Below, in pieces: positions 723 through 38,085 of a stretch of DNA of 43,321 bases. Where the stretch lies: the IMG/VR virus record IMGVR_UViG_3300031088_000735. One strand, written 5' to 3'. How positions within the stretch are numbered: position 1 is the first letter of the stretch; each line of letters begins with the position of its first letter. The DNA is from a virus (Duplodnaviria; Heunggongvirae; Uroviricota; Caudoviricetes). The notes under the pieces are model-generated. The model was not told where the DNA came from, made no database searches, and saw nothing but the letters and a program-made list of their open reading frames with translations. Made by a program: the position numbers and the translations under genes.

Positions 723-1205
723 ATGGAACTCATTGAAGATTTGACCGAAGAACAAATCATTGCTCAAGCCGAAATGAACTCACGACCCGATGATGCTCCT
801 TATTATTACATGTACAGCATTCTTCGCACTGACATTCACATGCTTGAAGGCAAAATGCTCTCTCAATCTGGACACGCCTTCACTGACTCACTGCTGGCCG
901 CTCAGAAAAAGAAGCCAGAAGTGTGTGACCAATATCGTGCATGGTGTAATGAACATCGTGACGCCTTCAATGGCGGTGCTAAGGTCAACATGAAAGCCAA
1001 GAACAGCTCTCAACTGGTTAAGGCTTATAATATTGCTCGAAAGGCTGGTATTCCTTGTGCGATTGTTGTTGATCGGGGGCATATCCATCCACCCCATTTC
1101 AATGGTCAGTTGATTATCACTGCATTAGGTCTTGGGCCTTGCACTCAGGAAGAAGCTCATCAGATCACGAAGCGATTCACTTGTATTCAAGAAAAATTAA
1201 AATAA
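723..1205 (+). CDS. peptidyl-tRNA hydrolase, PTH2 family
   Basis: PTH2 motifs GKMLSQSGHA, AKVNMKA, IVVDRG, TALGLGP. Confidence 0.8.
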   Translation: MELIEDLTEEQIIAQAEMNSRPDDAPYYYMYSILRTDIHMLEGKMLSQSGHAFTDSLLAAQKKKPEVCDQYRAWCNEHRDAFNGGAKVNMKAKNSSQLVKAYNIARKAGIPCAIVVDRGHIHPPHFNGQLIITALGLGPCTQEEAHQITKRFTCIQEKLK

Positions 1206-1213
1206 CTTTATTC

Positions 1214-1241
1214 TTGAGTTTTTCTTGATAGCTGTTATTAT
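1214..1241 (+). promoter_or_regulatory. sigma70-type promoter for SRP RNA
   Basis: TTGAGT 1214-1219, 16 nt spacer, extended -10 TGtTATTAT ending 1241. Confidence 0.5.
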
Positions 1242-1258
1242 TCAACTATTGTCATAAT

Positions 1259-1366
1259 GGGAAATCTCTTCGGCCCTTATAACATTGCATCGAAAACCGA
1301 GTCAGGACCGGAAGGTAGCAGCTCTATTGATGTTAATGTGTGTAAGTAAGTTTGAAGAGGTTTTCC
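1259..1366 (+). ncRNA. ffs: bacterial small SRP RNA (4.5S)
   Basis: Domain IV motif GTCAGGACCGGAAGGTAGCAGC (1301-1322) with GGAA tetraloop; 13-bp terminal stem 1259-1271/1354-1366; nested stems 1276-1281/1341-1346, 1282-1286/1335-1339, 1287-1293/1327-1333, 1299-1302/1321-1324; followed by T-run. Confidence 0.93.
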
Positions 1367-1424
1367 TTTTCTAATTAAAATATATTGATAAACTCATGAC
1401 ATTAAAAAAAGCTCTAATGAGCTT

Positions 1425-2192
1425 TTAATTTGATATTGCTGTTTTTTTACAAACTTCATATTCACCTTGTATTACATTATTACCAAGATTTCTACTTTTC
1501 TGATAATTTCCTCTATTGAACGCGACATTCCCCATAATTATTCTTTGATTGTTGTCTGGCAATATCTTTCCTTCTGGCACTGTAATCGTTCCTTGTGGGA
1601 AAATAATGCCACTGCTTGTTGATGTTATATTTCCGAAACTGCCTAATTTTGCACTTGAGAATGCACGTTTTCCATCAGAAGTTAATACCGTATTCCATGT
1701 ATATTCTCTTGCATTTGGTGCGTCAGGGTTTTGATTGGTGTATCTGCAGTCATCCTGATCCCATTCTTGGGTTGGTATATAATCACTTTTGTTTGGAAAA
1801 ATTGGATCGCCTTTAAAGCAAATTTCATAATATTTTAAGTCAGGGTCGCCAAATCCTTCAACTTCTGCACCTTTAAAACCATTTGAAATATATAATCCAT
1901 AATACATTGGATTTGAATAAGGTACGTAGATACCATCTTCATTTTTTATTTTGCCTTCTATATACACATCTATATTCCAGTAATCAGAACTGCAAGTAAC
2001 ACCTTCATCAGTTGGTAATGGATCAGGCACGTCAAACACTGGTTCAGATGAATCTTTTCCTATTATTATTGAATTATAAGGTAGACCGCCACCTTGTGGG
2101 ATTTCCAATGGCATTTTTATTAAAAAAGAAGCATTGCTGTTTATGTTTACAAGCATTGTAGCAAAAAACATACCTATAATTTTTTTAATCAT
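1425..2192 (-). CDS. exported Cys-containing protein, paralog-like to 3188..3841
   Basis: Sec-type signal peptide MIKKIIGMFFATMLVNINSNA; two Y-E-[IV]-C motifs. Confidence 0.75.
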   Translation of the reverse strand: MIKKIIGMFFATMLVNINSNASFLIKMPLEIPQGGGLPYNSIIIGKDSSEPVFDVPDPLPTDEGVTCSSDYWNIDVYIEGKIKNEDGIYVPYSNPMYYGLYISNGFKGAEVEGFGDPDLKYYEICFKGDPIFPNKSDYIPTQEWDQDDCRYTNQNPDAPNAREYTWNTVLTSDGKRAFSSAKLGSFGNITSTSSGIIFPQGTITVPEGKILPDNNQRIIMGNVAFNRGNYQKSRNLGNNVIQGEYEVCKKTAISN

Positions 2193-2361
2193 ATCATTAA
2201 TTTCCTTATTTTTTTTTATTATTATCGCATAGTTATAACTTTTAACAATATAATCAGACTTAAATATATAGAAAAAAACACTTGTAATAGAGATGATACT
2301 TTATATAATATGATTATAAGAGTTGAATACCTCAGTTCTTATAACCTCTCTAATGGAGTAT

Positions 2362-2646
2362 ATGGATATGACGACATACAAAGAAGGCTCGCTTTACACA
2401 TTAGCCGTTGACTATTATCACAAAGTTACACTGCATTGCACCTATATTGCTGATGGTTTTGTTTATTTCATTGATAACAACAAAGACATCAACTACAAAA
2501 AAAATCTTAAAACAAAAAAACTCTATGTGTTCAACACTCAATATCAAAGCTGGGATACGCTTGAAGACACTCTTAAGCCTCTTGCTGATAATGAAGCTGT
2601 TGAACGACCATTACCACCTAACAAATTTCAATTCCGTGGTGATTAA
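2362..2646 (+). CDS. hypothetical protein
   Basis: ORF with GGAG RBS; start 2362 or 2368. Confidence 0.7.
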   Translation: MDMTTYKEGSLYTLAVDYYHKVTLHCTYIADGFVYFIDNNKDINYKKNLKTKKLYVFNTQYQSWDTLEDTLKPLADNEAVERPLPPNKFQFRGD

Positions 2647-2710
2647 CGCTAGGTTTTAGCTTTTGATTATGATATAATTAGAAATCTATCAATCGGGAAT
2701 AGGTTTTTAA

Positions 2711-3115
2711 AATCAGCTTTTTGAACATAAACAAACGGTTTCTAAATATTTAAATGCTGATAAAGTGTGGCTTCTCATGAGCGATGATAAAGAATTTTGT
2801 CTTCTGAATAAATATAAACAAAAACTCATGTTAAGTTATCTTCCATTCAAAACTATGTATGAAGACAAAAATAAAGAGTTAATCACACTTACTTATTACA
2901 AAGGAAAAGTGAAGACAACGACAACCATTACAATTACTGATGAAATTAAAAATCATGAAATGTCAATTAGTAATACCGTGATGGATAAGATTGAAAGTTT
3001 GAAACTAAAAAAACCATCTGAAGCTATTCTTCAATCATTGCGAGAACTTGAACTACCTACTAAAATACCATTAAATAATGATGATTTAATTGTTTTAGAT
3101 ATGTGTAATATATGA
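2711..3115 (+). pseudogene. 5'-truncated paralog of 3942..5195 C-terminal part
   Basis: NQLFEHKQTVSKYLNADKVWLL aligns to NQLTDNQSFLSKHIDLSKVQVL upstream of the GTG at 2765; in-frame TAA at 2708-2710. Confidence 0.65.
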
Positions 3116-3187
3116 TTTATACAAGGTTTTGACAATAATTAGTTCATAGTGTTATACTGTTAAAATAAAAACAATAATTAAATTACT

Positions 3188-3841
3188 ATGAACACATTAA
3201 AATTAATTCTTCCAGCGTTAATCGCTGCAATTTTTTCCAGTTATTCTATGGCTGATTATCAAGTTCAATTTGGCAAACAACAAATCAATGGTGACAATAT
3301 TAAATTTGTTACTCCCGGTCAATGGCTTCCAGCAGATCCTGTTTTTAGTTCATGGACTAATAGTGGTACATTGACAAATTGCACAAATTGGACACCTGAT
3401 CCATCCACTGTTGATACTGGTGTTGTATTTACACAAAATGCGACTGATTGTAAGCAAGAACAAACCAGAACAGTACAAAATAGAGAGAAAAATGATGTTA
3501 CACAAGCATTTCGCAATGTCGGTTCGGCAACAACAGAAAATCAGATATTAGCGAATCAAGTCAGTAGCCGTTCTGCTACTGGTACTAAGGTTCTTGAAGA
3601 ATGTTCATATGTTTATGGTAGTACTAATACGATGTCAGCTTGGATTGACAATGATACAACCAGAGCAATTGAGATTTGGTGGAAAGGCACTAAAATAATT
3701 TCCACGACACCATCTTCCATTGTGACCATATACACAACAGGTGGCTTTAAATATCAAAGAACAGGTAGTTATATAGACAGAAGCCTTAGAACTTCAGATA
3801 GTTGGTATCGCTACTACAAAATATGTCGTTCACCTATCTAA
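3188..3841 (+). CDS. exported Cys/Thr/Trp-rich protein
   Basis: Signal peptide ending SMA; CTNWTP...TDC and ECSY...YYKICR cysteine pairs. Confidence 0.85.
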   Translation: MNTLKLILPALIAAIFSSYSMADYQVQFGKQQINGDNIKFVTPGQWLPADPVFSSWTNSGTLTNCTNWTPDPSTVDTGVVFTQNATDCKQEQTRTVQNREKNDVTQAFRNVGSATTENQILANQVSSRSATGTKVLEECSYVYGSTNTMSAWIDNDTTRAIEIWWKGTKIISTTPSSIVTIYTTGGFKYQRTGSYIDRSLRTSDSWYRYYKICRSPI

Positions 3842-3857
3842 AAACATGTAAACAATA

Positions 3858-3881
3858 GAGATCTTTCGAGGTCTTTTTTTT
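3858..3881 (+). terminator. intrinsic terminator
   Basis: GAGATCT-TTCG-AGGTCTT plus T-run. Confidence 0.75.
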
Positions 3882-3941
3882 GTTGCCTAAATTCTTGCTA
3901 TTTGTTATAATCGAACAAATTTCTAATGGATAATAACGACC

Positions 3942-5195
3942 ATGATTTGTAAACTACTTAATTTTCTAAGTGTTTCATTATACCGTGAGCGAGATTTCGC
4001 AATCAGTAAAGTGGATGAGAATCATTTTTCTGTTAAGTCTCGTAATGGATTGAACGCGACTATTACTATCAATGACAGAATTATGTTCGTTGATACATCT
4101 TTTGAGCATAAGAGTCCGTTTGTTCGGCATATATCAAACTCGTTTTTAAATATGGAAAAAAGCGTTGTCCGCTATTCAACGCCGCTCAATGATAGTTCAT
4201 TAAGTTTTGACGACTTTGTTGTTAAAGCTATAAAAAGCACCGTTTTATTCAAACTTAAAAAAAATAGATTATCCACCTATTTCAAAGAGTATGATGACTT
4301 TTTTCAAGATACTATTTCTATTTCTTTTTATCAAAAACTCATTGATGCTGATATTGGTCCTATAAGATTTTTAAATTATGATCAACATGTGACGGATGTT
4401 GATCATACTGAATATACTTGTATGTATGATTATAAGCTGTTTAATAAAAAATGTTATCCTATTATTTATTTTACTAAAAAGAAAGTAATAGACAATGTTT
4501 TTAAATATAGCTTTCATGCTAAAAAAATAAAAACTACTGCAAAAAAAGAAAAGGTTGTTGCTTATTATATTGATGGTCTATTTTTTAATCTTTGTGATTT
4601 GGAAACTTTCTTTTTTAACAAAGCCGCCAAAGATAAGTATGATCACTTTGGTATTCATTCAGTCAGCTTCAATCCTTATCTATCATCAGAATCAAATATA
4701 CTCTATGGCATTAACAACCAACTGACTGATAACCAATCTTTTTTGAGCAAACATATTGATTTATCAAAAGTTCAAGTACTTAGACGCGATGGTCAACAAT
4801 ATTGTCTGCTAAAAAAAGAAAATAGACAACTAACCTTGTCATACATTACCAATTTTGATATTGATAAAACAGTGGTTGATGGTGTGCTGACTTACAGTTC
4901 ATGGTGGCAAAAAATGCTGCGAAATGAGCCACCACTACGTCGATATAAAAATGAACACCTAATTACTTATTCTTATATTGACGGCAAATTAACCAAAAAG
5001 ACGGTGCGATTTGATCTTGATATGGTGACTAAACATGAAATGGACATCAGTAATCAGGCTATGGCTAATGTTGATTATTTGAAAACTCATTATCCATCTG
5101 ACTTTATTGTTAATCGTCTGAATGATTTTGGCATTTGTTCTGACATTCCACTTAGTCTGAATGATTTGTCTGTCTTGGAAATGTGTGAAATCTAA
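3942..5195 (+). CDS. hypothetical protein, C-terminal MxxI motif family
   Basis: 417 aa ORF; TGTTATAAT at 3903-3911; ends VLEMCEI. Confidence 0.85.
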   Translation: MICKLLNFLSVSLYRERDFAISKVDENHFSVKSRNGLNATITINDRIMFVDTSFEHKSPFVRHISNSFLNMEKSVVRYSTPLNDSSLSFDDFVVKAIKSTVLFKLKKNRLSTYFKEYDDFFQDTISISFYQKLIDADIGPIRFLNYDQHVTDVDHTEYTCMYDYKLFNKKCYPIIYFTKKKVIDNVFKYSFHAKKIKTTAKKEKVVAYYIDGLFFNLCDLETFFFNKAAKDKYDHFGIHSVSFNPYLSSESNILYGINNQLTDNQSFLSKHIDLSKVQVLRRDGQQYCLLKKENRQLTLSYITNFDIDKTVVDGVLTYSSWWQKMLRNEPPLRRYKNEHLITYSYIDGKLTKKTVRFDLDMVTKHEMDISNQAMANVDYLKTHYPSDFIVNRLNDFGICSDIPLSLNDLSVLEMCEI

Positions 5196-5282
5196 CCACA
5201 TTCGGGTGGTTTTTTCATTGTTATGGTTGTGTTGATGTGATACAATACAGGTCTTAAAAATTAGCTTGTTATGAGGCATTCC

Positions 5283-5699
5283 ATGATCCGTTTAGCTTCC
5301 GAACATGACTTAACCGACATTAAACGCATTGCGAATCAAAATCGAGAGTTTATCGGTTTTGTCATGAAAGTGGCGTTGATGGAAGCTATTCAAAAAAAAT
5401 CATTGCTGGTTTTTGAAAATTCAACTGGTGTGGTTGGTTTTGTTCACTATCATCCACGCAAAGATGGTTGGCATACGGTTCATGAGCTTGCTGTTTCAAA
5501 GAGCATTCAAGGCCAACGTGTCGGTCAGCAACTCTTTGATAGTGTTCCACTGCCTATTCGGTTAAAAACAACTGAAGACAATGTAAACGCATTAAAATTC
5601 TACGCTAAAAATGGTATGAATATTGTCCGTATAGAAAACGGAAAAAAGAGAAAATTGGCTGTCCTAGAAAAATATAAAGGAGAATTAAATAATGCCTGA
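5283..5699 (+). CDS. GNAT family N-acetyltransferase
   Basis: VHELAVSKSIQGQRVGQQL (motif A) and NVNALKFYAKNGM (motif B); GAGG RBS favours ATG 5283. Confidence 0.85.
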   Translation: MIRLASEHDLTDIKRIANQNREFIGFVMKVALMEAIQKKSLLVFENSTGVVGFVHYHPRKDGWHTVHELAVSKSIQGQRVGQQLFDSVPLPIRLKTTEDNVNALKFYAKNGMNIVRIENGKKRKLAVLEKYKGELNNA

Positions 5700-5904
5700 G
5701 ATTTCTGATTTTGTTTTTGCTTGTCTGTCTGAACTTGAAGATGATAAAGTTGTATACAAAACTATTGAAAAATCCTACACCAAACAGCAGTTAATGGAAG
5801 AAGTCATTCAAAAAACTACTGTTGGTAAAATTTATTGTTCTGAGCTTTTTCGTGTGGCTCGTGACCTCATTGTTCGAAAAAAAGCATCAGAAACTGTTCA
5901 TTAA
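5692..5904 (+). CDS. hypothetical protein
   Basis: AAGGAG RBS; overlaps GNAT stop. Confidence 0.75.
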   Translation: MPEISDFVFACLSELEDDKVVYKTIEKSYTKQQLMEEVIQKTTVGKIYCSELFRVARDLIVRKKASETVH

Positions 5905-5981
5905 TAACAGGATGTAACTGTTGTTTATCGTTGATAATCGTGTTATAATAGTCTCACTTAAATAAACTAAGGTATCTTCTC

Positions 5982-6308
5982 ATGTCTGTTACCAAAATCA
6001 ACAAAGCTGCAGTAGATGTTGTTCTTGGCAATAATAATCTGATTCGTGAAGCATTGTTGGTAATGGATCACGATCCTAAATATCGTATGACCACGGCCAT
6101 GATCGACACCTTCATCAGTATTTTGAAACGTGCAGAAGAAGTCTTCAAAGACCAGCCCAGCATTGATCTGGTGGGTGCCTATGCTGAAACGGTTGATTTG
6201 GTGTCAAAGGTGCTTATCAAGCACGAAATGTACCATATGGCTCAAATGATTGCTGATAACAGTGAAATCGTTAAAAAAGAAGTCTTGAAACCATTATTTA
6301 GTGCTTAA
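5982..6308 (+). CDS. hypothetical protein
   Basis: ORF with TGTTATAAT at 5941 and TAAGG RBS. Confidence 0.8.
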   Translation: MSVTKINKAAVDVVLGNNNLIREALLVMDHDPKYRMTTAMIDTFISILKRAEEVFKDQPSIDLVGAYAETVDLVSKVLIKHEMYHMAQMIADNSEIVKKEVLKPLFSA

Positions 6309-6364
6309 CATCGAGCCATTTTTTTGCTATAATTACCCTATCAAAACACATATAGGAAAATTTG

Positions 6365-6790
6365 ATGAAAACTCCAATTGAAGCACCACGTAGCAAAGTC
6401 ATGGTTGGCTTGACCTTTATCGGTGCATGGCATTATCATATGGACGCCTTTATCAATGACACGGCTGATTTGGAACTTCGTTGTGCGTTGTTCCATTCGA
6501 TTCATCAAACTACGCCTGAACACCTTGAAGATGTTCAAACACCAGAGATTGACGGTGCTTTGGAGAATTTGAAATCTCAAATTAAAGCTTATTCGAAAGC
6601 TGCTATTGAGCGTGCGATTGAGGCGGAAAAACTTCAACTGAAAACTTCGGTTGAACAATCGTTTGTAGGTATGAACAAACAAGACCCAGCCGGTAGCGTA
6701 AAAGATCTGGCTGCTCACTATGGTGTGACCATCAGTGAATATCGTAAACTGAAACGTGAAGGTCGCCTTCATGAGTTGAAAACGAGTTAA
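6365..6790 (+). CDS. hypothetical protein, possible C-terminal HTH
   Basis: SVKDLAAHYGVTISEYRKL resembles a helix-turn-helix. Confidence 0.7.
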   Translation: MKTPIEAPRSKVMVGLTFIGAWHYHMDAFINDTADLELRCALFHSIHQTTPEHLEDVQTPEIDGALENLKSQIKAYSKAAIERAIEAEKLQLKTSVEQSFVGMNKQDPAGSVKDLAAHYGVTISEYRKLKREGRLHELKTS

Positions 6791-6861
6791 CATTCTCCAT
6801 TTTCAGACAAATAAAAAATCAAGATTTCAAAGGATCTTGATTTTTTTTGTCTTCTATTTAA

Positions 6862-7446
6862 TCAGTATTCGTTATCATATTTGTCTATGTAGTTAAAACA
6901 AAAATCATCATTGCCTTCTTCTTTTGCTCGTTTTACTTCCATTTTCAAATTATCAATAAACTCACCTAACGTGGGTTGTTGCCAGCCAAGTTCTTCTTCA
7001 TCAGACCAGATGACAAAAACACCTTTACCGTCTTCGCGTAAGTCCATGACTACATAAGCGTCATTGTCAACTAACAATGGAATGATATGATTGCAATCTT
7101 CTTCGCTGAGTAAATCTGGTCGTTCTTCAATCATTAAATAATTTGTAATGTCGAACTGGTTAGCCAATTCAATCTCTTCTAACAGCATCCACTCACCATT
7201 CATCACTTGAACGCCATCATAGTTTCTGTAAAACTCAACAAAATCATCGGGAAGTTTGTAGCCTATGCGATCTTCCAATAGTTTAATTCTGTTTTCAAAG
7301 ACAAAGTAATAGTCTATATCCAATTCAGGATCTTTTCTAAATTCATTCAATATGAACTCTCTATATGACCACGGGATAGAATGACCCATTTTAATAAATC
7401 TGGCTTCTACCTCTCTTATGAAACTAAGTTCTTGTTCAGTTAACAT
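6862..7446 (-). CDS. SMI1/KNR4 (SUKH) family immunity protein
   Basis: IKLLEDRIGYKLPDDFVEFYRNYDG signature, C-terminal TLGEFI; GAGGTG RBS before ATG 7446. Confidence 0.8.
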   Translation of the reverse strand: MLTEQELSFIREVEARFIKMGHSIPWSYREFILNEFRKDPELDIDYYFVFENRIKLLEDRIGYKLPDDFVEFYRNYDGVQVMNGEWMLLEEIELANQFDITNYLMIEERPDLLSEEDCNHIIPLLVDNDAYVVMDLREDGKGVFVIWSDEEELGWQQPTLGEFIDNLKMEVKRAKEEGNDDFCFNYIDKYDNEY

Positions 7447-7629
7447 TTTCGCCACCTCTGATTTCTTATATTTTTCATATAATAATACCATAAATAGACA
7501 ATAATACAAACGTCACCTATCACTTTCTAAGAGTTATTGAAAGCTTTTTAATTGCTATTTTTATATCTAAAAATATTGACTTTAAGGGTGATTTTTGTTA
7601 TAATATAGGATCATTATAGGAGTAGGAGA

Positions 7630-8013
7630 ATGATAAAATCAAAAAGTAAACAAATTATCAGTGTTCAAGATTGGGACGAATTAGTGGTATCAACTTATGG
7701 CCGTCCTTATTCTTTTCAGCAGCAAGATGGTTGCAAAGATAGAGGTGTATTTTATCTTACTATTCCAGAAGCGGGTGATGACTATGAGGCTGAATCCGTT
7801 CCAGAAGAAATCAACGGTGATGACATGGGTGTTAGTTTTGCCGCATGGTTAGCCCGAAATCCAAAAGAATGGAATGGCGATCCAACTGACAAGAATTTTA
7901 TTGACTTGTTTTGGGAGCGTAATTTCTATCCAGAAGTGCAAACAATTGCTAATGATTTGCATGCAAAAGGATTGATTTCTGCTGGTGAATATGGCATTGA
8001 TATTGATTGGTAA
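7630..8013 (+). CDS. hypothetical protein
   Basis: Promoter TTGACT-17-TATAAT (7576-7604), AGGAG RBS. Confidence 0.85.
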   Translation: MIKSKSKQIISVQDWDELVVSTYGRPYSFQQQDGCKDRGVFYLTIPEAGDDYEAESVPEEINGDDMGVSFAAWLARNPKEWNGDPTDKNFIDLFWERNFYPEVQTIANDLHAKGLISAGEYGIDIDW

Positions 8014-8094
8014 TGCAACTTTTTTGTTTGATTGAAAGCTTAATGAGAATTAAGCTTTTTTTATAAGTTTTTGAAAATAAACCGAAAAAAGATC

Positions 8095-8123
8095 TTGACG
8101 GTACCGGTCATTTTCTCTATAAT
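8095..8123 (+). promoter_or_regulatory. strong sigma70 promoter for tRNA cluster
   Basis: TTGACG-17 nt-TATAAT. Confidence 0.8.
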
Positions 8124-8129
8124 TCTCAC

Positions 8130-8290
8130 ATCAAGACGAAACGGAGAAACACAATCTTGCAACAATGACCCAGCACTTCTTATGAGTGGCAAGTTTCAGG
8201 ATAAAGGTCGCGGCCTCCCGATATAACTCATGAGCATGGACAACTACTCGGTGCAGATACAAATAGAGTAGGCCACTATCATATTAGCAA
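8130..8290 (+). ncRNA. candidate structured RNA or long leader before tRNA-Arg
   Basis: No substantial ORF, GC-richer than flanks, several complementary segments. Confidence 0.35.
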
Positions 8291-8297
8291 CACCCAT

Positions 8298-8374
8298 GTC
8301 TGCGTAGCTCAGTTGGATAGAGCATCCGCCTTCTAAGCGGATGGTCGTTGGTTCGAATCCAACCGTAGACGCCA
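8298..8374 (+). tRNA. tRNA-Arg(UCU)
   Basis: Acceptor GTCTGCG/CGTAGAC, anticodon arm TCCGC-CTTCTAA-GCGGA, GTTCGAA T-loop, encoded CCA. Confidence 0.97.
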
Positions 8375-8391
8375 GCTTTTGCAACATCCAC

Positions 8392-8476
8392 GCCCGAGTG
8401 GTGAAATCGGTAGACGCGGGGGACTTAAAATCCCCTTCCTTACGGAGTGCCGGTTCGAGTCCGGCCTCGGGCACCA
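8392..8476 (+). tRNA. tRNA-Leu(UAA)
   Basis: GCCCGAG/CTCGGGC acceptor, GGGGA-CTTAAAA-TCCCC, long variable arm, CCA. Confidence 0.97.
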
Positions 8477-8510
8477 GATTAACTGTTACTATTATTCGTT
8501 GGAGAATTAT

Positions 8511-8834
8511 ATGAGTTCTTTGTATAAGTTTGAAAACAAATTGGTTGATAATACCAATAAAGATGAACTTCGTAGCTATTTGGCTAATGCAAAAAAAGAA
8601 TTGCTCAAAGTTCGTTCCGCCTGTGGCTTTGACGAGTCGGTTCAAATTATTGAAGACCGTTCATTGATGAAAGTCTCTCTGGTGGGTGGTAACTTCTCGT
8701 TGGCTGTTCGTCACGGTGAGCATGCTTATAAGACCACTATCAAGCTGTTTAACAATGGCAGTCTTGTTCAAGAAGTCAGCCTTGCCAATCTCTACAATCC
8801 GAAGCTTATTGAGCAATTAAAAGCTTTGGCTTAA
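8511..8834 (+). CDS. hypothetical protein between the two tRNA-Leu genes
   Basis: GGAG RBS before ATG 8511; the longer 8379 start overlaps a tRNA. Confidence 0.8.
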   Translation: MSSLYKFENKLVDNTNKDELRSYLANAKKELLKVRSACGFDESVQIIEDRSLMKVSLVGGNFSLAVRHGEHAYKTTIKLFNNGSLVQEVSLANLYNPKLIEQLKALA

Positions 8835-8842
8835 TACAACAT

Positions 8843-8927
8843 GCCCGGTTGGTGAAATCGGTAGACACAGAAGACTTAAAATCTTCCGACGCAAGTCGTG
8901 CCAGTTCGAGTCTGGCACCGGGCACCA
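8843..8927 (+). tRNA. tRNA-Leu(UAA), second isodecoder
   Basis: GCCCGGT/ACCGGGC acceptor, GAAGA-CTTAAAA-TCTTC, variable arm, CCA. Confidence 0.97.
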
Positions 8928-8994
8928 AATTTAATCCTTTCAACACTTCTCTTTTTGTGTTATAATCTCTTATCTTTTTTGAGGTTAGACCACC

Positions 8995-9735
8995 ATGTCG
9001 CTAGATTTAGCCCACCACATTGTTGATGTTATAATGTCTTGTGAAAATCCTTCATCAAGTCATATGGCATTGAAGATAATTCAAGATCGTTCAACTTCAA
9101 GTGCAGATATTCAATGTCATAAGCTGAATCGCACAACACCGTCCATCACAGGCTATAAAAGTTTATTTAAATGTCATGATGACAGTCCTTTTGAATGCGT
9201 ATTTTCGTTGGAACATGAATTAGATTTGACGACATTCTTCAAATTTATTGCCAATCCGTCACGTTTTGAGATTCAGAATGTTCAATATGGCATTCAAATG
9301 GAGATTGTATGGTTTAGCCGATTTATTGATCGGTTTAAGGAACAAGCTGGTAACGCATTGTTTGAAGAACTTTATCAATCAGCATTGATTGACTTTTCTA
9401 TTAAATGTTCAGACGATGTGTTCGAAGTGGTTTTAAACTTTTCGAAACATTCGCTTTATTTGGGAAAAAATGTTCATTTTGAATTTCATTTTGATATGGC
9501 TGGTAACTTTCAATCTGTTAATTTCCGCTCATATTCTTATGGTGATAATTACCAACGTGAAATTATTCCTAAATACAAACCAGAAAATCAGTTAATGGCT
9601 TTTCATCTATTATTATCTTATTATTGTCATCCACTTGTTCATCAAGAACTTGATAGTTTGCTTACTGTTCCGATTGATCTTAATGACAACAATATAAATA
9701 ACTACGAAAATATTGTAACCATGCTTAAAATTTGA
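8995..9735 (+). CDS. hypothetical protein, C-terminal MxxI motif family
   Basis: 246 aa ORF, GAGG RBS, ends IVTMLKI. Confidence 0.85.
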   Translation: MSLDLAHHIVDVIMSCENPSSSHMALKIIQDRSTSSADIQCHKLNRTTPSITGYKSLFKCHDDSPFECVFSLEHELDLTTFFKFIANPSRFEIQNVQYGIQMEIVWFSRFIDRFKEQAGNALFEELYQSALIDFSIKCSDDVFEVVLNFSKHSLYLGKNVHFEFHFDMAGNFQSVNFRSYSYGDNYQREIIPKYKPENQLMAFHLLLSYYCHPLVHQELDSLLTVPIDLNDNNINNYENIVTMLKI

Positions 9736-9769
9736 TTTCTTTTTTATTCTTTTTTCGAGGTTCTATAAC

Positions 9770-10106
9770 ATGATTTCACCCACATTCACCTACAAATATC
9801 CAGTTAAGTTTCTGTAAACATTCAAATTTATTAAATAAAAATGTTCGTTATAATATCTATTTTGACGAATCTTTTAATTTTGTTAATGTTGAGTTTCTTT
9901 CTCATACTGACTTAGACAATAATCAAGTGCAGCATTTGTCAAAATTTAATGGTACTAACAAATTAACAGCGTTTTATGTGTTGTTACATTATTACACCAA
10001 TATTGAAATTCACAATAATCTTGTCTCAATGATGGATATCGACAATGATTTGAACGATGAAAACTGGTTTATGTGTAGCAATATCATTAGCATGAATACT
10101 ATTTAA
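9770..10106 (+). pseudogene. frameshifted or truncated tandem paralog of 8995..9735
   Basis: Open frame 9774-10106 encodes QLSFCKHSNLLNKNVRYNIYFDESFNF...NKLTAFYVLLHYY...DLNDENW...IISMNTI, aligning to the 8995 C-terminus; ATG 9770 with GAGG RBS is in another frame. Confidence 0.75.
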
Positions 10107-10116
10107 ACATAAAAAT

Positions 10117-10482
10117 TTATTTCTTTTTTGATGTCAATTGATGGCTCCAATCAATTAAGTCATACAATTCATTGACTGGATAGTTTTTATCTAACCTCAC
10201 TGTTATCCAGTGTTTTTTGTTCATATGATAAGCTGGCAAAATATAATCCTGACTTCTCAATATGCTGTTGAACTCAGGATTTCCTTTGACATTGATGATA
10301 TCTATTGTTCCATCTTCGTTTAGACCTAACTTACGTTTTTCTATTGTCATAATTACGCCATACCATTTATTACTTTCTGCGTTTCTTAATACCGCAACAT
10401 CTGGATGTTTCAAAAACATGTACTCTGGTGTCGTGTCGAACTTCTCGCTTACATATTTAAAGATTTCTTCTCTATTGATCAT
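10117..10482 (-). CDS. MmcQ/YjbR family DNA-binding protein
   Basis: KWYG, INVKG, ILPAYHMNKKHWITV, LIDWSHQLT motifs. Confidence 0.9.
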   Translation of the reverse strand: MINREEIFKYVSEKFDTTPEYMFLKHPDVAVLRNAESNKWYGVIMTIEKRKLGLNEDGTIDIINVKGNPEFNSILRSQDYILPAYHMNKKHWITVRLDKNYPVNELYDLIDWSHQLTSKKK

Positions 10483-10599
10483 GGATAAACTCCTTTATTT
10501 TTGTTATTTTATTACAAATTGAAAATTTTTCTAGTGACACCTTCTCTATTTTTTGATATACTATGAACCTATTGAACACATCTTATTTGAGGATTACCT

Positions 10600-10851
10600 A
10601 TGAAAAAGCTTGAAAGTTTGGCATTGGACGAAATCAAAAAAAACGCAAGCTCAATCACAATGAATCTTTTTGAAGCAAAAAATCGTTTGGTTGAGGTCAA
10701 AAATACCTTGATGCATGGTGATCCAAATTTGAGCAAAGAAGCACTTACCAGTTTGATTAACGCTGCTCAAAAAGCGATTGCTGGTATTGATCAATCTTCT
10801 TCATCTAGCACTTTGATTGAATCTTGGGCAGAAGGTTTGTCTGAAAAATAA
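10600..10851 (+). CDS. hypothetical protein
   Basis: GAGG RBS, downstream terminator. Confidence 0.8.
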   Translation: MKKLESLALDEIKKNASSITMNLFEAKNRLVEVKNTLMHGDPNLSKEALTSLINAAQKAIAGIDQSSSSSTLIESWAEGLSEK

Positions 10852-10981
10852 TTAATCATTATGTGTAGAGTATTTTAAAGCCGCCTTCTGGCGGTTTTTT
10901 ATTGCTTTTAAAATTTAAAACTAGCTATTTAAAATATTTTCTAGTATAATCCATGAATATTCAACATTCAGGAGTTTTATT

Positions 10982-11260
10982 ATGTTTGGTTGCTGCAGTG
11001 CAAGGACATTTAAATACATCAGCAAAGAAGGTGTGCTTGATCTTGAAGCCTTGAAAAAATTCTTCGGTGAGCAAACAGAAGTCTTTCAAGCACATGATGG
11101 CATCAAGATCAAAATCTTGAAAAAGGTTGAGCCTAACAACTTGACTGATGATGAGATGGAAATGGTTTTTGCTCGTAAAGATCTTCCTGAAAAAACTTTG
11201 CGAACGTATCCACTCTGCACTTGTCCTTGCCATGTCGAAGGCACAATGGTTGATTGTTAA
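10982..11260 (+). CDS. small Cys-rich hypothetical protein
   Basis: AGGAG RBS; GCC and CTCPCH motifs. Confidence 0.8.
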   Translation: MFGCCSARTFKYISKEGVLDLEALKKFFGEQTEVFQAHDGIKIKILKKVEPNNLTDDEMEMVFARKDLPEKTLRTYPLCTCPCHVEGTMVDC

Positions 11261-11359
11261 ACCATCACTGTTATCAATAAGGGGCTGAGGCTCCTTTTTT
11301 GTTGCTTTTTTTATTACCTTATGTTATAGTTTTCACCTAATTAACTATAAGGAATATTT

Positions 11360-11674
11360 ATGACTACAGTTGCTCAAACCATTGCTAAATTTCAAGCTGG
11401 CTTTAATCCAGAAGCCGCTGCTGGTAAAGATTATATCTTTCAATTTAATGTCACTGACGACAAGATTTACTGCCTCAATATTAAAGATGGTCAATGTACC
11501 GCTTCCGAAGGTGTCAATGATGATGCTAACGTGACTTTGGTGACTGATGCCGCTACTCTTGCGGCTATGGCAGATGGCTCTCTGGATGGTATGCAGGCTT
11601 TCATGAGTGGTAAACTGCGTATTGAAGGCGATATGATGCTGTCCCTGAAACTCAATGAACTGTTCTCTAAATAA
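11360..11674 (+). CDS. SCP2 sterol/lipid-binding domain protein
   Basis: FNPEAAAG...DGMQAFMSGKLRIEGDMML signature. Confidence 0.93.
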   Translation: MTTVAQTIAKFQAGFNPEAAAGKDYIFQFNVTDDKIYCLNIKDGQCTASEGVNDDANVTLVTDAATLAAMADGSLDGMQAFMSGKLRIEGDMMLSLKLNELFSK

Positions 11675-11684
11675 GGAGCAGTTT

Positions 11685-12098
11685 ATGCCTATTTCATTAG
11701 TTCACATTATTGAGATTAACCATCAGTCGGTTGTTGACTTTAAGATTAATCAAAACACGACTGCTTTAATTGCTAACCAAATTCGAGTGGTTACTAAGCC
11801 TAAGCTGTCTTTATTTTGGGAGTCTTATAATGGTTTAAAATCACTTATGGGAACTTCAGATAAAGAAATAGCAGAGAATAAAGAAAAAGCGATAGCTTTT
11901 GGACAGAAAAATGACATTAATGTTGATGTGACTGATTATAGCTATTCATTTCAATCTTTTGATATTATGGTTACATTGTCTGAAAAAGTTGAAACTCTAT
12001 TTAAGTTCTTGACGCTTGAAGCTGCTGAAAAGGCTTATGTTGAACTGTTGACAGCCGCTTCTTTATCTCAAGTTGCACAGGAAAAAACGAAAAGCTAA
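11685..12098 (+). CDS. hypothetical protein
   Basis: TAAGGAG RBS before ATG 11685. Confidence 0.8.
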   Translation: MPISLVHIIEINHQSVVDFKINQNTTALIANQIRVVTKPKLSLFWESYNGLKSLMGTSDKEIAENKEKAIAFGQKNDINVDVTDYSYSFQSFDIMVTLSEKVETLFKFLTLEAAEKAYVELLTAASLSQVAQEKTKS

Positions 12099-12219
12099 TA
12101 ATATAATTTACACAAATACCGCCTTCGGGCGGTTTTTTGTTTCTTTCATTGATTGAAAATCAACTTTGTGTTACTATCAAAAAATGATCATGAGAATAAA
12201 AATATTATAGGAGTTGTTT

Positions 12220-12633
12220 ATGCCACACATTGCGTTTGCTGCTGCTTATCTTACCCCTGAATCGAATGATATTATCACTTCGTTGGGGTTTCAAAAAGAA
12301 GATTTTCACTTGACGACTTGTATTGACTTGTCAGGTGCTATCAATGAAATGCCAGTTTATGGATTTCAACCCAAAACTGCAGTCGTTAAAGCTGTTACTG
12401 AATGGCCTGTTCGTGGTGGGGTCTTTCTTGTAGCTGAGATGGCTGAATGCGATTGGAGTTCTTATATCAACAAAGTCTTAAAAGCCTATGGTGCTGTTGA
12501 GGATGTTCCACATAATCCACACATTACCTTGCTCAAAACAAACGCCGAAGGTACTAGTCATTTGTATCAAAGCTTGGTTGGTAAAAAGTTTAGTTTTAAT
12601 CGCCATGTGATTAAACGAAAAGAAATTCCATAA
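12220..12633 (+). CDS. 2H phosphoesterase, Acb1/T4 57B-like
   Basis: HxT motifs FHLTT and PHITL; FAAAY, EW...LV and AYGAVED segments parallel T4 57B. Confidence 0.7.
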   Translation: MPHIAFAAAYLTPESNDIITSLGFQKEDFHLTTCIDLSGAINEMPVYGFQPKTAVVKAVTEWPVRGGVFLVAEMAECDWSSYINKVLKAYGAVEDVPHNPHITLLKTNAEGTSHLYQSLVGKKFSFNRHVIKRKEIP

Positions 12634-12705
12634 TACTAATCAATAACCTTTTAATAATTGTCACATTGTGCTATAATCCAACATTATCATTTGATGAGGT
12701 GTCGC

Positions 12706-13233
12706 ATGACCACACTTAACTTTTTACAGTCTAGTTTTAAAAACAGTCAAGCGACCATTTATCTGGCTCCTGACTTTGTTGATATCTCTGCAACAGAATT
12801 TCCTAATGGTATTCCGTTGGGTGGTGAACCTCTCAGTCCAGAAAAAGCAGAAAGTTTTATTGCAGGTTTGCAACACTTTTTCACTGTATTTGTTGAAGAC
12901 TTAGTTTATACGTTGGGCGATAACCCAGATTATTTCAAAACCAAACACTTTACCGAACCTGTTGTGACAGTAAGTGATGATTACAATTCCCGTCGCTGGT
13001 CGGCTGTTTACTGGGATGGTCACTACGATGAAGTGCATGGGACTCGTTTATTGCCCCATGTTAAGTTCCTTCCAGCCTTTGTAGATACGGAAGACGCTGG
13101 TTTTAGTCATGGCATTTCTGCTTTCAATCAGTTTTTTGAAACAGAACAAGAAGCCTTTGACGCATCGGTTAAGCTTGAAAACTTTATGAATGTGGTGCTG
13201 GCTGAATTGCTGTTGAACCACGTTAAAGTTTAA
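12706..13233 (+). CDS. hypothetical protein
   Basis: GAGGTG RBS before ATG 12706. Confidence 0.8.
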   Translation: MTTLNFLQSSFKNSQATIYLAPDFVDISATEFPNGIPLGGEPLSPEKAESFIAGLQHFFTVFVEDLVYTLGDNPDYFKTKHFTEPVVTVSDDYNSRRWSAVYWDGHYDEVHGTRLLPHVKFLPAFVDTEDAGFSHGISAFNQFFETEQEAFDASVKLENFMNVVLAELLLNHVKV

Positions 13234-13330
13234 GATTGTACAGTTCATCTGGAACGGTCACTTCGGTGGCCTTTTTTATTGTTTAAAGAAAAGCAATATG
13301 CTATTATAAAGCGATTATAAGGAATTATAT

Positions 13331-13525
13331 ATGTTGGTTAAAGATCACCCAGAAGACGAAACTATTGTTGGTAAGCGAGTATGGAATAAATCCCAAACTC
13401 AGGAAGGCACTATTGTTCTTTTTGATCCAAAAGATCGTTATCCCAGTATTGATATTAAATGGGACGATGGTCAACTGTCAGAGCGTTGTTTCATGGCGAA
13501 CATGGCAATTGAACTGGTTGATTGA
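13331..13525 (+). CDS. small beta-rich protein, tandem paralog A
   Basis: HPEDETIVGKRVW...PSIDIKWDDG..SERCFM. Confidence 0.85.
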   Translation: MLVKDHPEDETIVGKRVWNKSQTQEGTIVLFDPKDRYPSIDIKWDDGQLSERCFMANMAIELVD

Positions 13526-13552
13526 TTTACACTTTAATGTGAGGTAATTCAT

Positions 13553-13747
13553 ATGATACTTAGAGAACATCCAGAGAATGAAACGATTTTGAACAAGCGT
13601 GTATGGGATTATCACAAGACTAAAAAAGGCACTGTTGTGTTGTTTGATGGGCGTGATGTCATTCCAAGCATTGATATTAAATGGGACAATGGCGAATTTT
13701 CAGAACGCTGTTTTATGCGTTTTTTAGAAATTGAAATAGCCGAGTAA
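13553..13747 (+). CDS. small beta-rich protein, tandem paralog B
   Basis: HPENETILNKRVW...PSIDIKWDNG..SERCFM; same length as A. Confidence 0.85.
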   Translation: MILREHPENETILNKRVWDYHKTKKGTVVLFDGRDVIPSIDIKWDNGEFSERCFMRFLEIEIAE

Positions 13748-13828
13748 TCTATATTTTCAGAAGAATGATTGCATTATTGCTCTATTTTTGATAAAATAGG
13801 GCACATTCTACATGCATAGGTAACGATT

Positions 13829-14293
13829 ATGAGCCAGATTGAAGTCAGCCAAGAAAATTTGAAAAACTTGATGGATAAACAATATAAGTTCCATGCGTTG
13901 CTTGGTAAGCTGGAACATATGTCACCAGAAGTCAAAGCAGAATTTGAAGAGCTTCAACAAGCTGTTCGTGAACTTTTCAAAGAACATCATCAACGAGAAG
14001 ATGAAGCCCAAGCTAATAAATCAGATATGTTTGATAAAATCAGTGAAGCTAATGGTTTTAAAAGTATTTGGTCGATTTATGAAGTCGATGATATTAATGC
14101 TGTTTTTGGCTATGTTGAAGGCGTTGAATATGCAGGCTGTTCTGAACTGGTTGGAACAGAAATCACTTGGCTCCAATTGTGGGCTATTGCAGAACGCTTG
14201 ATTGAAGAGTCTGGTGATGACCATCACGTCTTTATTGAGAATTTTGCAAAAAAAGACAACGAACATCTGCATCGACTGATTACGGGTAGTTAA
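13829..14293 (+). CDS. hypothetical protein, tandem paralog A
   Basis: N-terminal coiled coil; TWLQLW...HVFIE. Confidence 0.8.
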   Translation: MSQIEVSQENLKNLMDKQYKFHALLGKLEHMSPEVKAEFEELQQAVRELFKEHHQREDEAQANKSDMFDKISEANGFKSIWSIYEVDDINAVFGYVEGVEYAGCSELVGTEITWLQLWAIAERLIEESGDDHHVFIENFAKKDNEHLHRLITGS

Positions 14294-15077: not shown

Positions 15078-15151
15078 GCGGAATTGGCATAGTGGCTGTG
15101 CTCCAGCCTTCCAAGCTGGCTACACGAGTTCGATCCTCGTATTCCGCTCCA
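15078..15151 (+). tRNA. tRNA-Gly(UCC)
   Basis: GCGGAAT/ATTCCGC acceptor, CCAGC-CTTCCAA-GCTGG, GTTCGAT T-loop, CCA. Confidence 0.96.
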
Positions 15152-18029: not shown

Positions 18030-18095
18030 TCAATCAGACTCCATTTGACAAACTAATTATTGAAATTATAATTTTTTTGAATAATGGAGTTACTT

Positions 18096-18497
18096 ATGTA
18101 TAAAGATTTAACCAACAAAGTACATGTTTGGATAGGTACCAATTTTGAGAATAATTATTATGATTACTTTGAAATTGACTATTCAACCGAAGGCGATTTA
18201 GACCACCCAGACTACAAACCGTGTGGGTTCTGTAAAGATACTGGTGTCTTGTGGTATGACGAAGACTTCATTGGCATCCTCCCACCGTTTCCAGCCGGTT
18301 TTTCTTTGGATGAAATCCTTGCTCAATCCGCTGTCAATCCTGATGAATATTCATTAGTTAAGTCTATTTGTTCTCGTTTAGGTATTGTCAACGCAAATGC
18401 TCTGTTCTGGTATCAAGAAAATGATGCTGAAATCACTGTTGATACCTCTAAAACCTACAATGGTTTGCATTATATTGGTCTTTTTGAAGGAGATTGA
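18096..18497 (+). CDS. Imm22-family immunity protein
   Basis: VHVWIG...DYFEIDY...CGFCKDTG..WYDEDFIG...LHYIGLF pattern; acidic. Confidence 0.75.
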   Translation: MYKDLTNKVHVWIGTNFENNYYDYFEIDYSTEGDLDHPDYKPCGFCKDTGVLWYDEDFIGILPPFPAGFSLDEILAQSAVNPDEYSLVKSICSRLGIVNANALFWYQENDAEITVDTSKTYNGLHYIGLFEGD

Positions 18498-36859: not shown

Positions 36860-37513
36860 ATGAAAAAAATTAAAACGTTGTTCGTGATTGACCGTAACAC
36901 TGACATGGCTACCGATGTTCTTACTGCTGGTGCAGAGTGGGTTATTCGTGGCGAAGGTAAAGCAACCATCAAATTTGACGGTTCTTCTGCCTACTTTGCT
37001 GATGGCAAGTTGTTCAAACGCTTTGACCGTAAATTGAAGTCTAACTTCTCTAAAATGGCTCGTAGCATGGGCGACAAGTTTGTGCCAGAAAATCACATGT
37101 TTAACGAAGTTCCAGAAGGTGCTATTCCTTGCGAAGCAGCTCCTGCAGCTCACAGTCTTCACTTCCCACACTGGGTTCCAGTGGGTGACGGCCCAGAAGA
37201 CAAGTTTCATCGTGAAGCTCTGGAAAATGCGGGTGAACTTAAAAATGGTGCCACTTACGAGTTGGTTGGCCCAAAAGTTAATGGTAATCCATACAAATTG
37301 GAACGCCATGAGTTGTGGGAACACGGAAGTGTCGAGTTTGAAGTGACTGACTTTACCTTTGAAGGGCTTAAAAAACTCTTTGCTGAGAAGCTGGTTAATG
37401 AGGAAGGCTTGGTGTTCCATCATCCTGATGGAAGCATGTTTAAGCTTAGAAATAAGGATTTTTCTTTTGCAACCTTCGGCAAATTTGACGACCGCAGCAA
37501 GAAGAAAAAATGA
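36860..37513 (+). CDS. DUF5565-like ATP-dependent RNA ligase
   Basis: Motif I TIKFDGS, TYELVGPKVNGNP, EGLVFHH, MFKLR. Confidence 0.7.
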   Translation: MKKIKTLFVIDRNTDMATDVLTAGAEWVIRGEGKATIKFDGSSAYFADGKLFKRFDRKLKSNFSKMARSMGDKFVPENHMFNEVPEGAIPCEAAPAAHSLHFPHWVPVGDGPEDKFHREALENAGELKNGATYELVGPKVNGNPYKLERHELWEHGSVEFEVTDFTFEGLKKLFAEKLVNEEGLVFHHPDGSMFKLRNKDFSFATFGKFDDRSKKKK

Positions 37514-37532: not shown

Positions 37533-37556
37533 AAAAGAGGCTTCGGCCTCTTTTTT
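37533..37556. terminator. bidirectional terminator
   Basis: AAAAGAGGC-TTCG-GCCTCTTTT between convergent genes. Confidence 0.85.
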
Positions 37557-38034: not shown

Positions 38035-38054
38035 GTTATTTCCTTATAAAAGAT

Positions 38055-38079
38055 AAAAAAAAAGTGGCATAAGCCACTT
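38055..38079 (-). terminator. toxI-toxN internal terminator
   Basis: Minus strand AAGTGGC-TTAT-GCCACTT with T-run. Confidence 0.9.
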
Positions 38080-38085
38080 ATATAA

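Follow-up and report, generated by a model that had tools for sequence, protein, structure and literature searches.

The RNA of the signal recognition particle (SRP), the 4.5S RNA of Escherichia coli, is regarded as a single-copy chromosomal housekeeping gene, and mobile elements are known to carry transfer RNAs (tRNAs), transfer-messenger RNA (tmRNA) and some ribosomal proteins. Here we describe an SRP RNA gene on a stretch of 43,321 nucleotides recorded as a virus of the Caudoviricetes, IMGVR_UViG_3300031088_000735, the whole of which is called the window below. The window belongs to a contig of 1.86 Mb, and from the features that it shares with the pMEGA megaplasmids it appears to be part of a pMEGA-like megaplasmid. 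The SRP RNA is in no way unusual for its family, and the novelty is its location, which we consider likely to be a non-chromosomal giant replicon, most likely one of pMEGA-like type.

The pMEGA megaplasmids of Enterobacteriaceae are circular and 1.33–1.58 Mb long (Guitor et al., bioRxiv 10.1101/2025.09.30.679422; PMC12633466). Their guanine-plus-cytosine (GC) content is 26 to <30%, against ~51% in the host (10.1101/2025.09.30.679422), hypothetical genes make up ~80% of the total, and as many as 208 tRNAs of diverse sequence are present (PMC12633466). TnpB, shufflon/pilin proteins, phosphatases and poly-immunity loci are among the families with several copies, a porin has been linked to carbapenem import, phage structural genes are reported as absent, and gene order is extensively rearranged (PMC12633466). 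The 438 core protein subfamilies of pMEGA1-20 include the peptidyl-tRNA hydrolase PTH2, listed for all 20 megaplasmids in Table S9, a T4-type RNA ligase and signal peptidase I, and pMEGA3 has a highly expressed 657-bp gene described as a 'possible RNA ligase' (Table S21, PMC12633466). In pMEGA4, genes of the Rep, Par, type IV secretion system (T4SS) and relaxase kinds are clustered in a small part of the genome, and the strongest RNA peaks of pMEGA are intergenic (PMC12633466). The terms SRP, 4.5S, Ffh and FtsY do not occur for the plasmids in the main text, and the supplement, whose files are possibly incomplete, lists Ffh and FtsY for the E. coli host alone (PMC12633466).

The gene under study lies near the start of the window:

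1259..1366, plus strand: SRP (4.5S-type) RNA gene, a rod of 108 nt (Rfam RF00169, fold, covariation)

The sequence-only reading had taken this segment for a 4.5S RNA with an intact Ffh-binding domain IV and had proposed a covariance-model search, and the identification was borne out by that search, by the fold and by covariation. The Rfam model RF00169 (Bacteria_small_SRP) matches positions 1266–1361 on the plus strand over model positions 1–97 of 97, with a score of 59.3 bits (gathering score 40; E 1.1e-10), and the only other Rfam matches in the window are four tRNAs. The 108 nt fold into a single rod of −38.8 kcal/mol, against a mean of −23.1 ± 3.2 kcal/mol for 200 shuffled sequences (z = −4.97), none of which is as stable. 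The conserved domain IV core at 1301–1322 reads GUCAGG-ACC-GGAA-GGU-AGCAGC with AAAACC ahead of it, and it is the same in all four RNAs aligned below. It thus holds a GNRA tetraloop (GGAA, 1310–1313) on a short helix, the symmetric loop GUCAGG/AGCAGC and the A/C-rich asymmetric loop; the tetraloop and its two flanks, which had been pointed out from the letters, can be read both in the sequence and in the Rfam alignment. The terminal stem of the rod extends past the Rfam match by 7 nt on the 5′ side and by 5 nt on the 3′ side, an extension that is backed by covariation, and the T-run noticed earlier, GGTTTTCCTTTTC, is present at the 3′ end of the rod.

Like the 4.5S RNA of Gammaproteobacteria (ffs, RF00169), the window RNA is a single rod of ~110 nt with a GGAA tetraloop and the domain IV loops, and it was aligned with the chromosomal ffs of Acinetobacter baumannii (73 bits). 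It differs from an ordinary ffs in its AT-rich stems (44% GC) and in its surroundings, which are tRNAs, a PTH2 gene and unknown small open reading frames (ORFs) instead of housekeeping genes, and the readable DNA of its element family has neither ffh nor ftsY. Outside the core, it is unlike any GTDB species genome scanned. Positions 1259–1366 are almost certainly a genuine full-length bacterial 4.5S-type SRP RNA gene.

Three relatives of the RNA were found by an exact-pattern scan of JGI metagenome contigs, one of which was found again in a scan of IMG/VR. The latter (L050) is identical to the IMG/VR record G001; the second (L052) comes from a 132-kb contig that is collinear with window positions 1250–14120 at 66–93% identity, and the third (L051, Ga0247812_10000314) from a 38-kb contig with a GC content of 29%. 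All score above the gathering score of RF00169 (57.6–62.4 bits), and the RNAs are 96% (G001), 93% (L052) and 86% (L051) identical to the window copy. The alignment of the window RNA with its three relatives is gap-free over all 108 columns. In this small sample, 98.8% of the 164 pair cells hold standard pairs, and 11 of the 41 pairs show compensatory changes on both sides. The terminal stem of 16 pairs, which lies outside the Rfam match, accounts for eight of these. In 500 column shuffles no signal as high arose, and only 35–43% of cells were paired when the 3′ partners were slid by 1–3 columns; the signal runs consistently through the rod from end to end. The segment GTGTAAGT on the distal 3′ strand is invariant in all four RNAs, and we take this region to correspond to the distal Ffh–FtsY GTPase-activating site of E. 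coli 4.5S RNA.

The neighbours of the gene present a contrasting picture: 39 of the 68 window ORFs have homologues in G001, with amino-acid identities of 25–83% and in shuffled order, and only two of the 17 proteins of L051 are common to the family. Because the rod was kept by compensatory changes while the neighbouring proteins diverged, the data support structural selection on the RNA in diverged relatives, in agreement with the long residence under such selection that had been suggested from its AT-rich stems. A strain variant seen in two runs (X4, X3) has four substitutions in the RNA, and each either preserves pairing or lies at an unpaired position. Two of them, C1308T and C1309T, replace the two C-G pairs below the tetraloop by U.G, and T1265C makes a C-G pair of a U.G.

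The carrier of the gene is very large. An exact look-up places nine window proteins on a contig of 1,859,102 bp, and cluster mates (≥90% identity) on contigs of 1,917,244, 1,851,360, 1,843,594, 1,071,457, 834,842 and 773,483 bp. The record G001 is an IMG/VR 'provirus' of 290,157 bp, listed as 96% complete, and corresponds to approximately positions 268,255–558,411 of a metagenome contig of 1,539,155 bp (Ga0247725_1000001). The readable DNA amounts to 43 kb from the 1.86-Mb contig, 290 kb from the 1.54-Mb contig, and 373 kb of the element family overall. Its GC content is 29–35% (32% in G001), and ~80% of the ORFs have no family match. The 448 ORFs of G001 lie to 83% on one strand, with a median length of 152 amino acids and a maximum of 666, and of the 30 largest proteins Pfam recognised three (a Na+/H+ exchanger, an M17 aminopeptidase and a Shufflon_N protein). 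Stop-codon recoding was considered as the cause of the small ORFs and rejected, because ORF lengths hardly rise when TAG, TGA or TAA is read through.

G001 encodes 35 tRNAs with about 13 anticodons, among them 11 Leu-UAA, 4 Arg-UCU and 6 with CAU, and the redundant ones serve A/U-ending codons, which are rare in GC-rich hosts. Two tRNAs, at 179840–179914 and 180849–180923 of G001, have CUA anticodons (amber-suppressor type, called 'Pyl' by ARAGORN), and another at 163041–163117 has a four-base anticodon. The 290 kb gave no indication of TAG recoding. Rfam models run on 280 of the 290 kb gave 36 tRNA matches and one SRP RNA, and no ribosomal RNA (rRNA), tmRNA or RNase P RNA. Apart from tRNAs, the SRP RNA is the sole housekeeping RNA that the readable DNA contains. 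Neither an Ffh M domain nor an SRP54 NG domain was found in the 290 kb of G001. The proposed look for ffh and ftsY beside the RNA returned neither gene in the readable DNA, which covers 43 kb and 290 kb of the two giant contigs. No housekeeping gene was seen in the 373 kb read.

Phage structural genes were likewise not seen. No capsid, portal or large terminase gene was detected among 60 window ORFs with PHROGs, no capsid, portal, terminase or polymerase among the 76 G001 ORFs of at least 250 amino acids, and no Terminase_6N or Terminase_6C domain in G001 or in two further giant records, G002 and G003, described below. Searches of the window, G001, L051 and L052 with PHROGs and Pfam found no Rep, ParA/ParF-type partition, T4SS or relaxase gene. 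The window is not a known phage or plasmid, since in megablast comparisons with GenBank phages and PLSDB only its tRNAs match at the DNA level. A 26-nt core of the RNA with flanks had no match in 185,579 GTDB species genomes save 10 unrelated Acidimicrobiales metagenome-assembled genomes (MAGs). In an IMG/VR protein search, G001 was the sole member of the element family. The runs in which the window element occurs are phyllosphere, soil, indoor and food-production metagenomes, and the only hint at host GC content is given by the GC-rich flanks of look-alike tRNAs in the same runs.

These features can be set against those of pMEGA. The window family shares with it the megabase size, a GC content far below that of the likely hosts, ~80% hypothetical genes and many diverse tRNAs, as seen in its GC content of 29–35%, the Pfam matches in 3 of 30 G001 and ~13 of 60 window proteins and the 35 tRNAs in 290 kb. 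Counterparts of pMEGA genes are found in TnpB-type transposases, Shufflon_N, metallophosphoesterases, SUKH/Imm22 and, in L051, an OprD porin with LspA, and counterparts of the pMEGA core in PTH2 and in RNA ligases, one T4 Rnl1-like and one of 217 amino acids. The latter resembles the 657-bp ligase gene of pMEGA3 in size and annotation, a lead that compares the two by description only (Table S21, PMC12633466). In both groups, phage structural genes are not seen and gene order is rearranged among relatives. In contrast to pMEGA, the GC content reaches 35% (29–35% against 26 to <30%), contigs extend to 1.92 Mb (against 1.58 Mb), the habitats are phyllosphere, soil, indoor and food-production sites instead of the gut, and T4SS, Rep and Par were not seen in the DNA read. 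Because such genes are clustered in pMEGA4, their lack in ~20% of a replicon is weak evidence. A search for pMEGA in complete E. coli genomes gave no match. The window family is probably a separate pMEGA branch, and it looks like an undescribed phyllosphere and soil branch that is larger than any published (1.58 Mb). We infer that the replicon is extrachromosomal and of pMEGA type, and that the host is a GC-richer gammaproteobacterium.

Several points weigh against this assignment. The likeness to pMEGA is one of annotation, and the window family has a higher GC content, a larger size and other habitats. The readable DNA is without replication, partition, conjugation, capsid and terminase genes, so neither 'plasmid' nor 'phage' is positively shown. 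If the unread DNA of the 1.86- and 1.54-Mb contigs included rRNA, ribosomal proteins and ffh, as it may, the window RNA would be an ordinary chromosomal ffs, and the IMG/VR label 'provirus' for G001 implies host-like genes in the flanks. Moreover, support for a promoter of the RNA's own is at the level of consensus. A chromosome or a giant chromosomal island as the carrier is on the whole rather unlikely, while still a serious minority possibility: the redundancy of the tRNAs that read A/U-ending codons, the very small genes, most of them of unknown kind, and the missing housekeeping content argue that this is not ordinary chromosomal DNA. The earlier proposal of a mobile element is accordingly plausible, in that the readable DNA is non-cellular in character and fits pMEGA; it is unproven, and the element is not of the kind that was meant.

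Of the two chromosomal alternatives, the one that survives better is that the 1.5–1.9-Mb contigs are chromosomes of an uncultured AT-rich bacterium, with the RNA as its ordinary single ffs in a gene-poor or dark region. Contigs of 1.84–1.92 Mb recur in at least four assemblies, as a complete small genome would, one relative at NCBI has protein names in the style of a prokaryote pipeline ('PTH2 family peptidyl-tRNA hydrolase'), and the RNA is strongly conserved and single-copy in 280 kb; the host-like flanks implied by the 'provirus' label point in the same direction. Set against this are 373 kb without a housekeeping gene, rRNA, tmRNA or RNase P RNA, and a complement of 35 tRNAs for ~13 anticodons, 11 of them Leu-UAA, within 290 kb, which is not a cellular tRNA set. 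Median protein length (152 amino acids), the ~80% of proteins without a family match, gene order scrambled among relatives and the absence of the RNA core from GTDB species genomes, the 10 Acidimicrobiales MAGs aside, also speak against a chromosome, and we regard this alternative as unlikely.

A little less likely still is a giant (≥290 kb) integrated phage-like island in a chromosome, in which the RNA would be a second copy beside the cell's own ffs. IMG/VR and CheckV did cut G001 out of the 1,539,155-bp contig as a 96% 'complete' provirus, PHROG matches lead to the jumbo phages CBB and GAP32, to Rak2-like phages, Aeromonas phage 65 and the 636–735-kb uncultured phages, a T4-type RNA ligase is present, and the window tRNAs are 95% identical to those of phage PA5oct. 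On the other hand, there is no integrase at the readable ends, the 76 G001 ORFs of at least 250 amino acids include no capsid, portal, terminase or polymerase and no Terminase_6 domains were found, and the region of the 1.86-Mb contig that holds the window is not in IMG/VR. The scattered cell-like genes of a megaplasmid (porin, exchanger, peptidase) may also pass for host flanks in provirus callers.

Searches of PubMed Central and bioRxiv returned no report of a phage- or plasmid-encoded SRP RNA gene. SRP or 4.5S RNA does not occur in the main texts on huge phages (Al-Shayeb et al. 2020, PMC7162821) and on phage G (PMC12484599). The elements described in these two texts resemble G001 and G002 in that a large mobile genome duplicates translation RNAs of the host, in islands of RNA genes (PMC7162821, PMC12484599). 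The mycobacterial tRNA islands were also considered as a precedent and set aside, because the 4.5S RNA there is an ordinary chromosomal gene (PMC6582537).

A scan of IMG/VR with the core motif gave 17 loci, of which five are large-type SRP RNAs on short contigs. In two others (G004, G005), prophages lie beside the host tadA-ffs in the order tadA-ffs-integrase, as phage phiEf11 is described to integrate at ffs (PMC12540744). In such cases, the RNA is the host gene at the attachment site (PMC12540744). The window family differs from the phiEf11 case in that there is no integrase and the RNA lies deep in the element and has diverged along with it. Another locus, L010 (IMGVR_UViG_3300035698_028977, a 46-kb viral contig), has between two tRNAs, at 289–332, a 44-nt hairpin that is the helix-8 tip of an SRP RNA only.

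A full-length SRP RNA (57.7 bits) was found near 349.8 kb of G002 (IMGVR_UViG_3300017971_000185), which is 497 kb long with a GC content of 58%. It lies in the middle of an island of 46 tRNAs, a near-complete set, at ~310–376 kb. G002 encodes a DNA polymerase, DnaB, a ligase and GroEL, and its longest ORF has 3,634 amino acids; no capsid or terminase was seen within 400 of its 497 kb. The record G003 (372 kb, GC 58%) is near-identical, with the same SRP RNA region. G002 is a second, unrelated giant phage-like element with the same trait.

The RNA was not found in the other large elements searched. RF00169 had no match in the 636–735-kb uncultured phages LR756501, LR756502 and LR756504 or in CBB and PA5oct (W09 and Atu_ph07 lay outside this search), nor in the Pseudomonas megaplasmids pBASL58 and pMPPla107. 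In BLAST comparisons with GenBank phages, the 171-nt region of the RNA had no match and its 35-nt core matched nine records; a short query of this kind misses SRP RNAs with other helix sequences, so the result is not a census. Matches to the core in Vibrio and Serratia phages were discarded, as they had no Rfam SRP match. One of the nine records, CAKLQF020000006.1 ('Acinetobacter phage MD-2021a', L097), is a mislabelled Acinetobacter chromosome with lpxD-fabZ-lpxA, recA and the chromosomal ffs. Another mislabelled entry, NZ_CP077849.1 ('plasmid pDETAB15', 3.66 Mb, L071/L076), is chromosome-sized and has the ffs of A. baumannii.

What the window RNA does may be considered from these results. 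The sequence-only reading had proposed that it could supplement co-translational targeting, stand in for host RNA that has been destroyed or titrate Ffh, and all three ideas are hypothetical. The precursor of E. coli 4.5S RNA is a substrate of RNase P. The RNA may be transcribed from a promoter of its own or cut from a transcript that also contains tRNA, and through its unchanged domain IV the transcript would bind the Ffh of the host to form a working SRP. That the RNA acts as working SRP RNA with host Ffh is moderately probable. It would then, like the tRNAs, PTH2, RNA ligases and signal peptidases of the element, duplicate a host function in translation or secretion, and the duplication may serve the element's own membrane and secretion proteins or buffer the function against loss. 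The gene is selected, intact and single-copy, it adjoins PTH2 and tRNAs, and no partner ffh or ftsY lies in the readable DNA. The likeliest reason for its carriage would be redundancy, or the supply of a host function that the membrane and secretion proteins of the element need. Taken as a whole, an SRP RNA on a giant AT-rich megaplasmid-like replicon that pairs with host Ffh is the best explanation, and we lean towards it.

Since the whole rod is conserved, the invariant GTGTAAGT included, a working RNA fits better than a decoy or terminator. That the RNA is expressed without being a working SRP RNA, as an Ffh-titrating decoy, a structured terminator or processing signal, or a captured former integration site, is improbable. 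In its favour, genes for Ffh and FtsY are missing from the vicinity, ffs does serve temperate phages as an integration site (phiEf11, PMC12540744; the tadA-ffs-integrase order of G004 and G005) and the SRP tip of L010 lies between two tRNAs. Against it, compensatory change keeps the whole 108-nt rod, and this includes the terminal stem, distant from the Ffh site, where 8 of 16 pairs covary; a decoy, a terminator or an attachment-site remnant would not need this. Moreover, none of the four relatives has an adjacent integrase, and GTGTAAGT is the same in four of four RNAs.

More tentatively, and with rather less than even confidence, we suggest that giant replicons carry SRP RNA without Ffh as a recurrent, undescribed part of their toolkit, exemplified by the pMEGA-sister family of phyllosphere and soil (~1.9 Mb) and by the unrelated 497-kb GC-rich element. 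Hybrid particles with host Ffh might favour or safeguard the insertion of the element's membrane and secretion proteins. If the replicon is extrachromosomal, the reach of the largest plasmids and phages extends beyond translation to co-translational membrane targeting. The family would probably also be a new branch of megabase plasmids from habitats other than the gut. The published pMEGA genomes, with their intergenic RNA peaks (PMC12633466), are candidates for this RNA. It may further be asked whether an AT-rich foreign 4.5S RNA is compatible with the Ffh of its host.

The immediate surroundings of the RNA gene are as follows:

723..1205, plus strand: PTH2-type peptidyl-tRNA hydrolase, directly upstream of the RNA (Pfam PF01981, E 1.2e-17)
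1225..1252, plus strand: candidate promoter TTGATA-16-TATTGT (consensus scan)
1249..1257, plus strand: extended −10-like word TGTCATAAT, overlapping the candidate promoter (kept in relatives)
1407..1426, no strand assigned: bidirectional terminator-like hairpin with an 8-bp stem and T-runs on both strands, between the SRP RNA and the gene at 1425–2192 on the minus strand (terminator scan)
1425..2192, minus strand: variable secreted-protein gene with a signal-peptide-like N-terminus, convergent with the RNA (translation)

An own promoter had been claimed for the RNA. A consensus-level site does exist at 1225–1252, and the part of the claim that fails is its significance, as a promoter scan of positions 1100–1500 found four promoter-like sites where shuffled sequences had 1.9 ± 1.3. 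G001 (TGTTGTAAT) and L052 (TGTTATAAT) retain the TGTnnTAAT word, and the remaining upstream DNA diverges. In G001, a tRNA-Arg lies 91 nt upstream of the SRP RNA on the same strand, which makes processing from a longer transcript an alternative to an own promoter. The terminator scan did not call the rod itself and called the separate hairpin at 1407–1426 instead.

The PTH2 protein shares 76% identity with a G001 protein and 41% with proteins from the jumbo phages Atu_ph07 and Phosso. On the other side, the signal-peptide protein that had been noticed beside the RNA is indeed there, encoded by the convergent gene at 1425–2192; its product belongs to the largest paralog family of G001 (nine copies). 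A contig of one run (X9) has a deletion of 1371–2335 (joint of 1370 to 2336) that begins right after the 3′ end of the RNA, so that the RNA is kept and the gene at 1425–2192 is gone. The sequence-only reading had also pointed to many signal-peptide and transmembrane proteins in the window, which was not upheld, as strongly hydrophobic segments turned up in no more than 8 of 68 ORFs in a crude Kyte-Doolittle scan, and an argument for function from these membrane proteins is weak. In L051, an OprD-family porin (E 1e-139) and the lipoprotein signal peptidase LspA lie at 1508–3479, ~6.5–8.5 kb from the SRP RNA. At least one member of the element family thus unites several envelope-biogenesis genes.

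The window as a whole has ~68 small ORFs, nearly all on the plus strand, and a GC content of 31–40%. A Pfam family was assigned to ~13 of the 60 ORFs scanned, and the families found are PTH2, GNAT, SUKH, YjbR, SCP2, Imm22, MYG1, SLT, a DEDDh exonuclease, RNA ligase and ToxN. For the MYG1-like protein, the ESM Atlas gave the family name only, with mixed viral and bacterial taxa. Matches by PHROG and tblastn lead to jumbo-phage accessory genes (CBB, GAP32, Rak2-like phages, Aeromonas phage 65, Pseudomonas phages and the 636–735-kb uncultured phages). Further features are:

8298..8927, plus strand: tRNA-Arg(UCU) and two tRNA-Leu(UAA), each with an encoded CCA end (ARAGORN, Rfam, sequence)
15078..15151, plus strand: tRNA-Gly(UCC) (Rfam, ARAGORN)
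36860..37513, plus strand: RNA-ligase-like protein of 217 amino acids, DUF5565/RLIG1 type (phrog_14301, E 1.5e-44; Pfam RLIG1)

The RNA-ligase-like protein is the best-conserved protein in common with G001 (83%, tblastn). At 37555–38198 lies a complete type III toxin-antitoxin locus of ToxIN/AbiQ-like kind. It consists of a ToxN-family gene (37555–38034, minus strand; Pfam E 7e-43) and, upstream of it on its strand, a 36-nt repeat in 3.2 tandem copies (38085–38198), which has the size of a ToxI repeat. Two orphan immunity genes, SUKH-1/SMI1-KNR4 (6862–7509, minus strand) and Imm22 (18084–18497, plus strand), have no recognisable toxin alongside, and similar orphan immunity genes are reported for pMEGA4 (PMC12633466). 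The window tRNAs whose identity to those of PA5oct was mentioned above have their relatives in a low-GC Pseudomonas jumbo phage. At 8480–8843, contigs in all four runs examined fuse the two tRNA-Leu(UAA) and omit 362 bp including a small ORF. The joint carries nine other letters; such contigs reflect either variation in length or a paralogous pair of tRNA genes at another place in the replicon.

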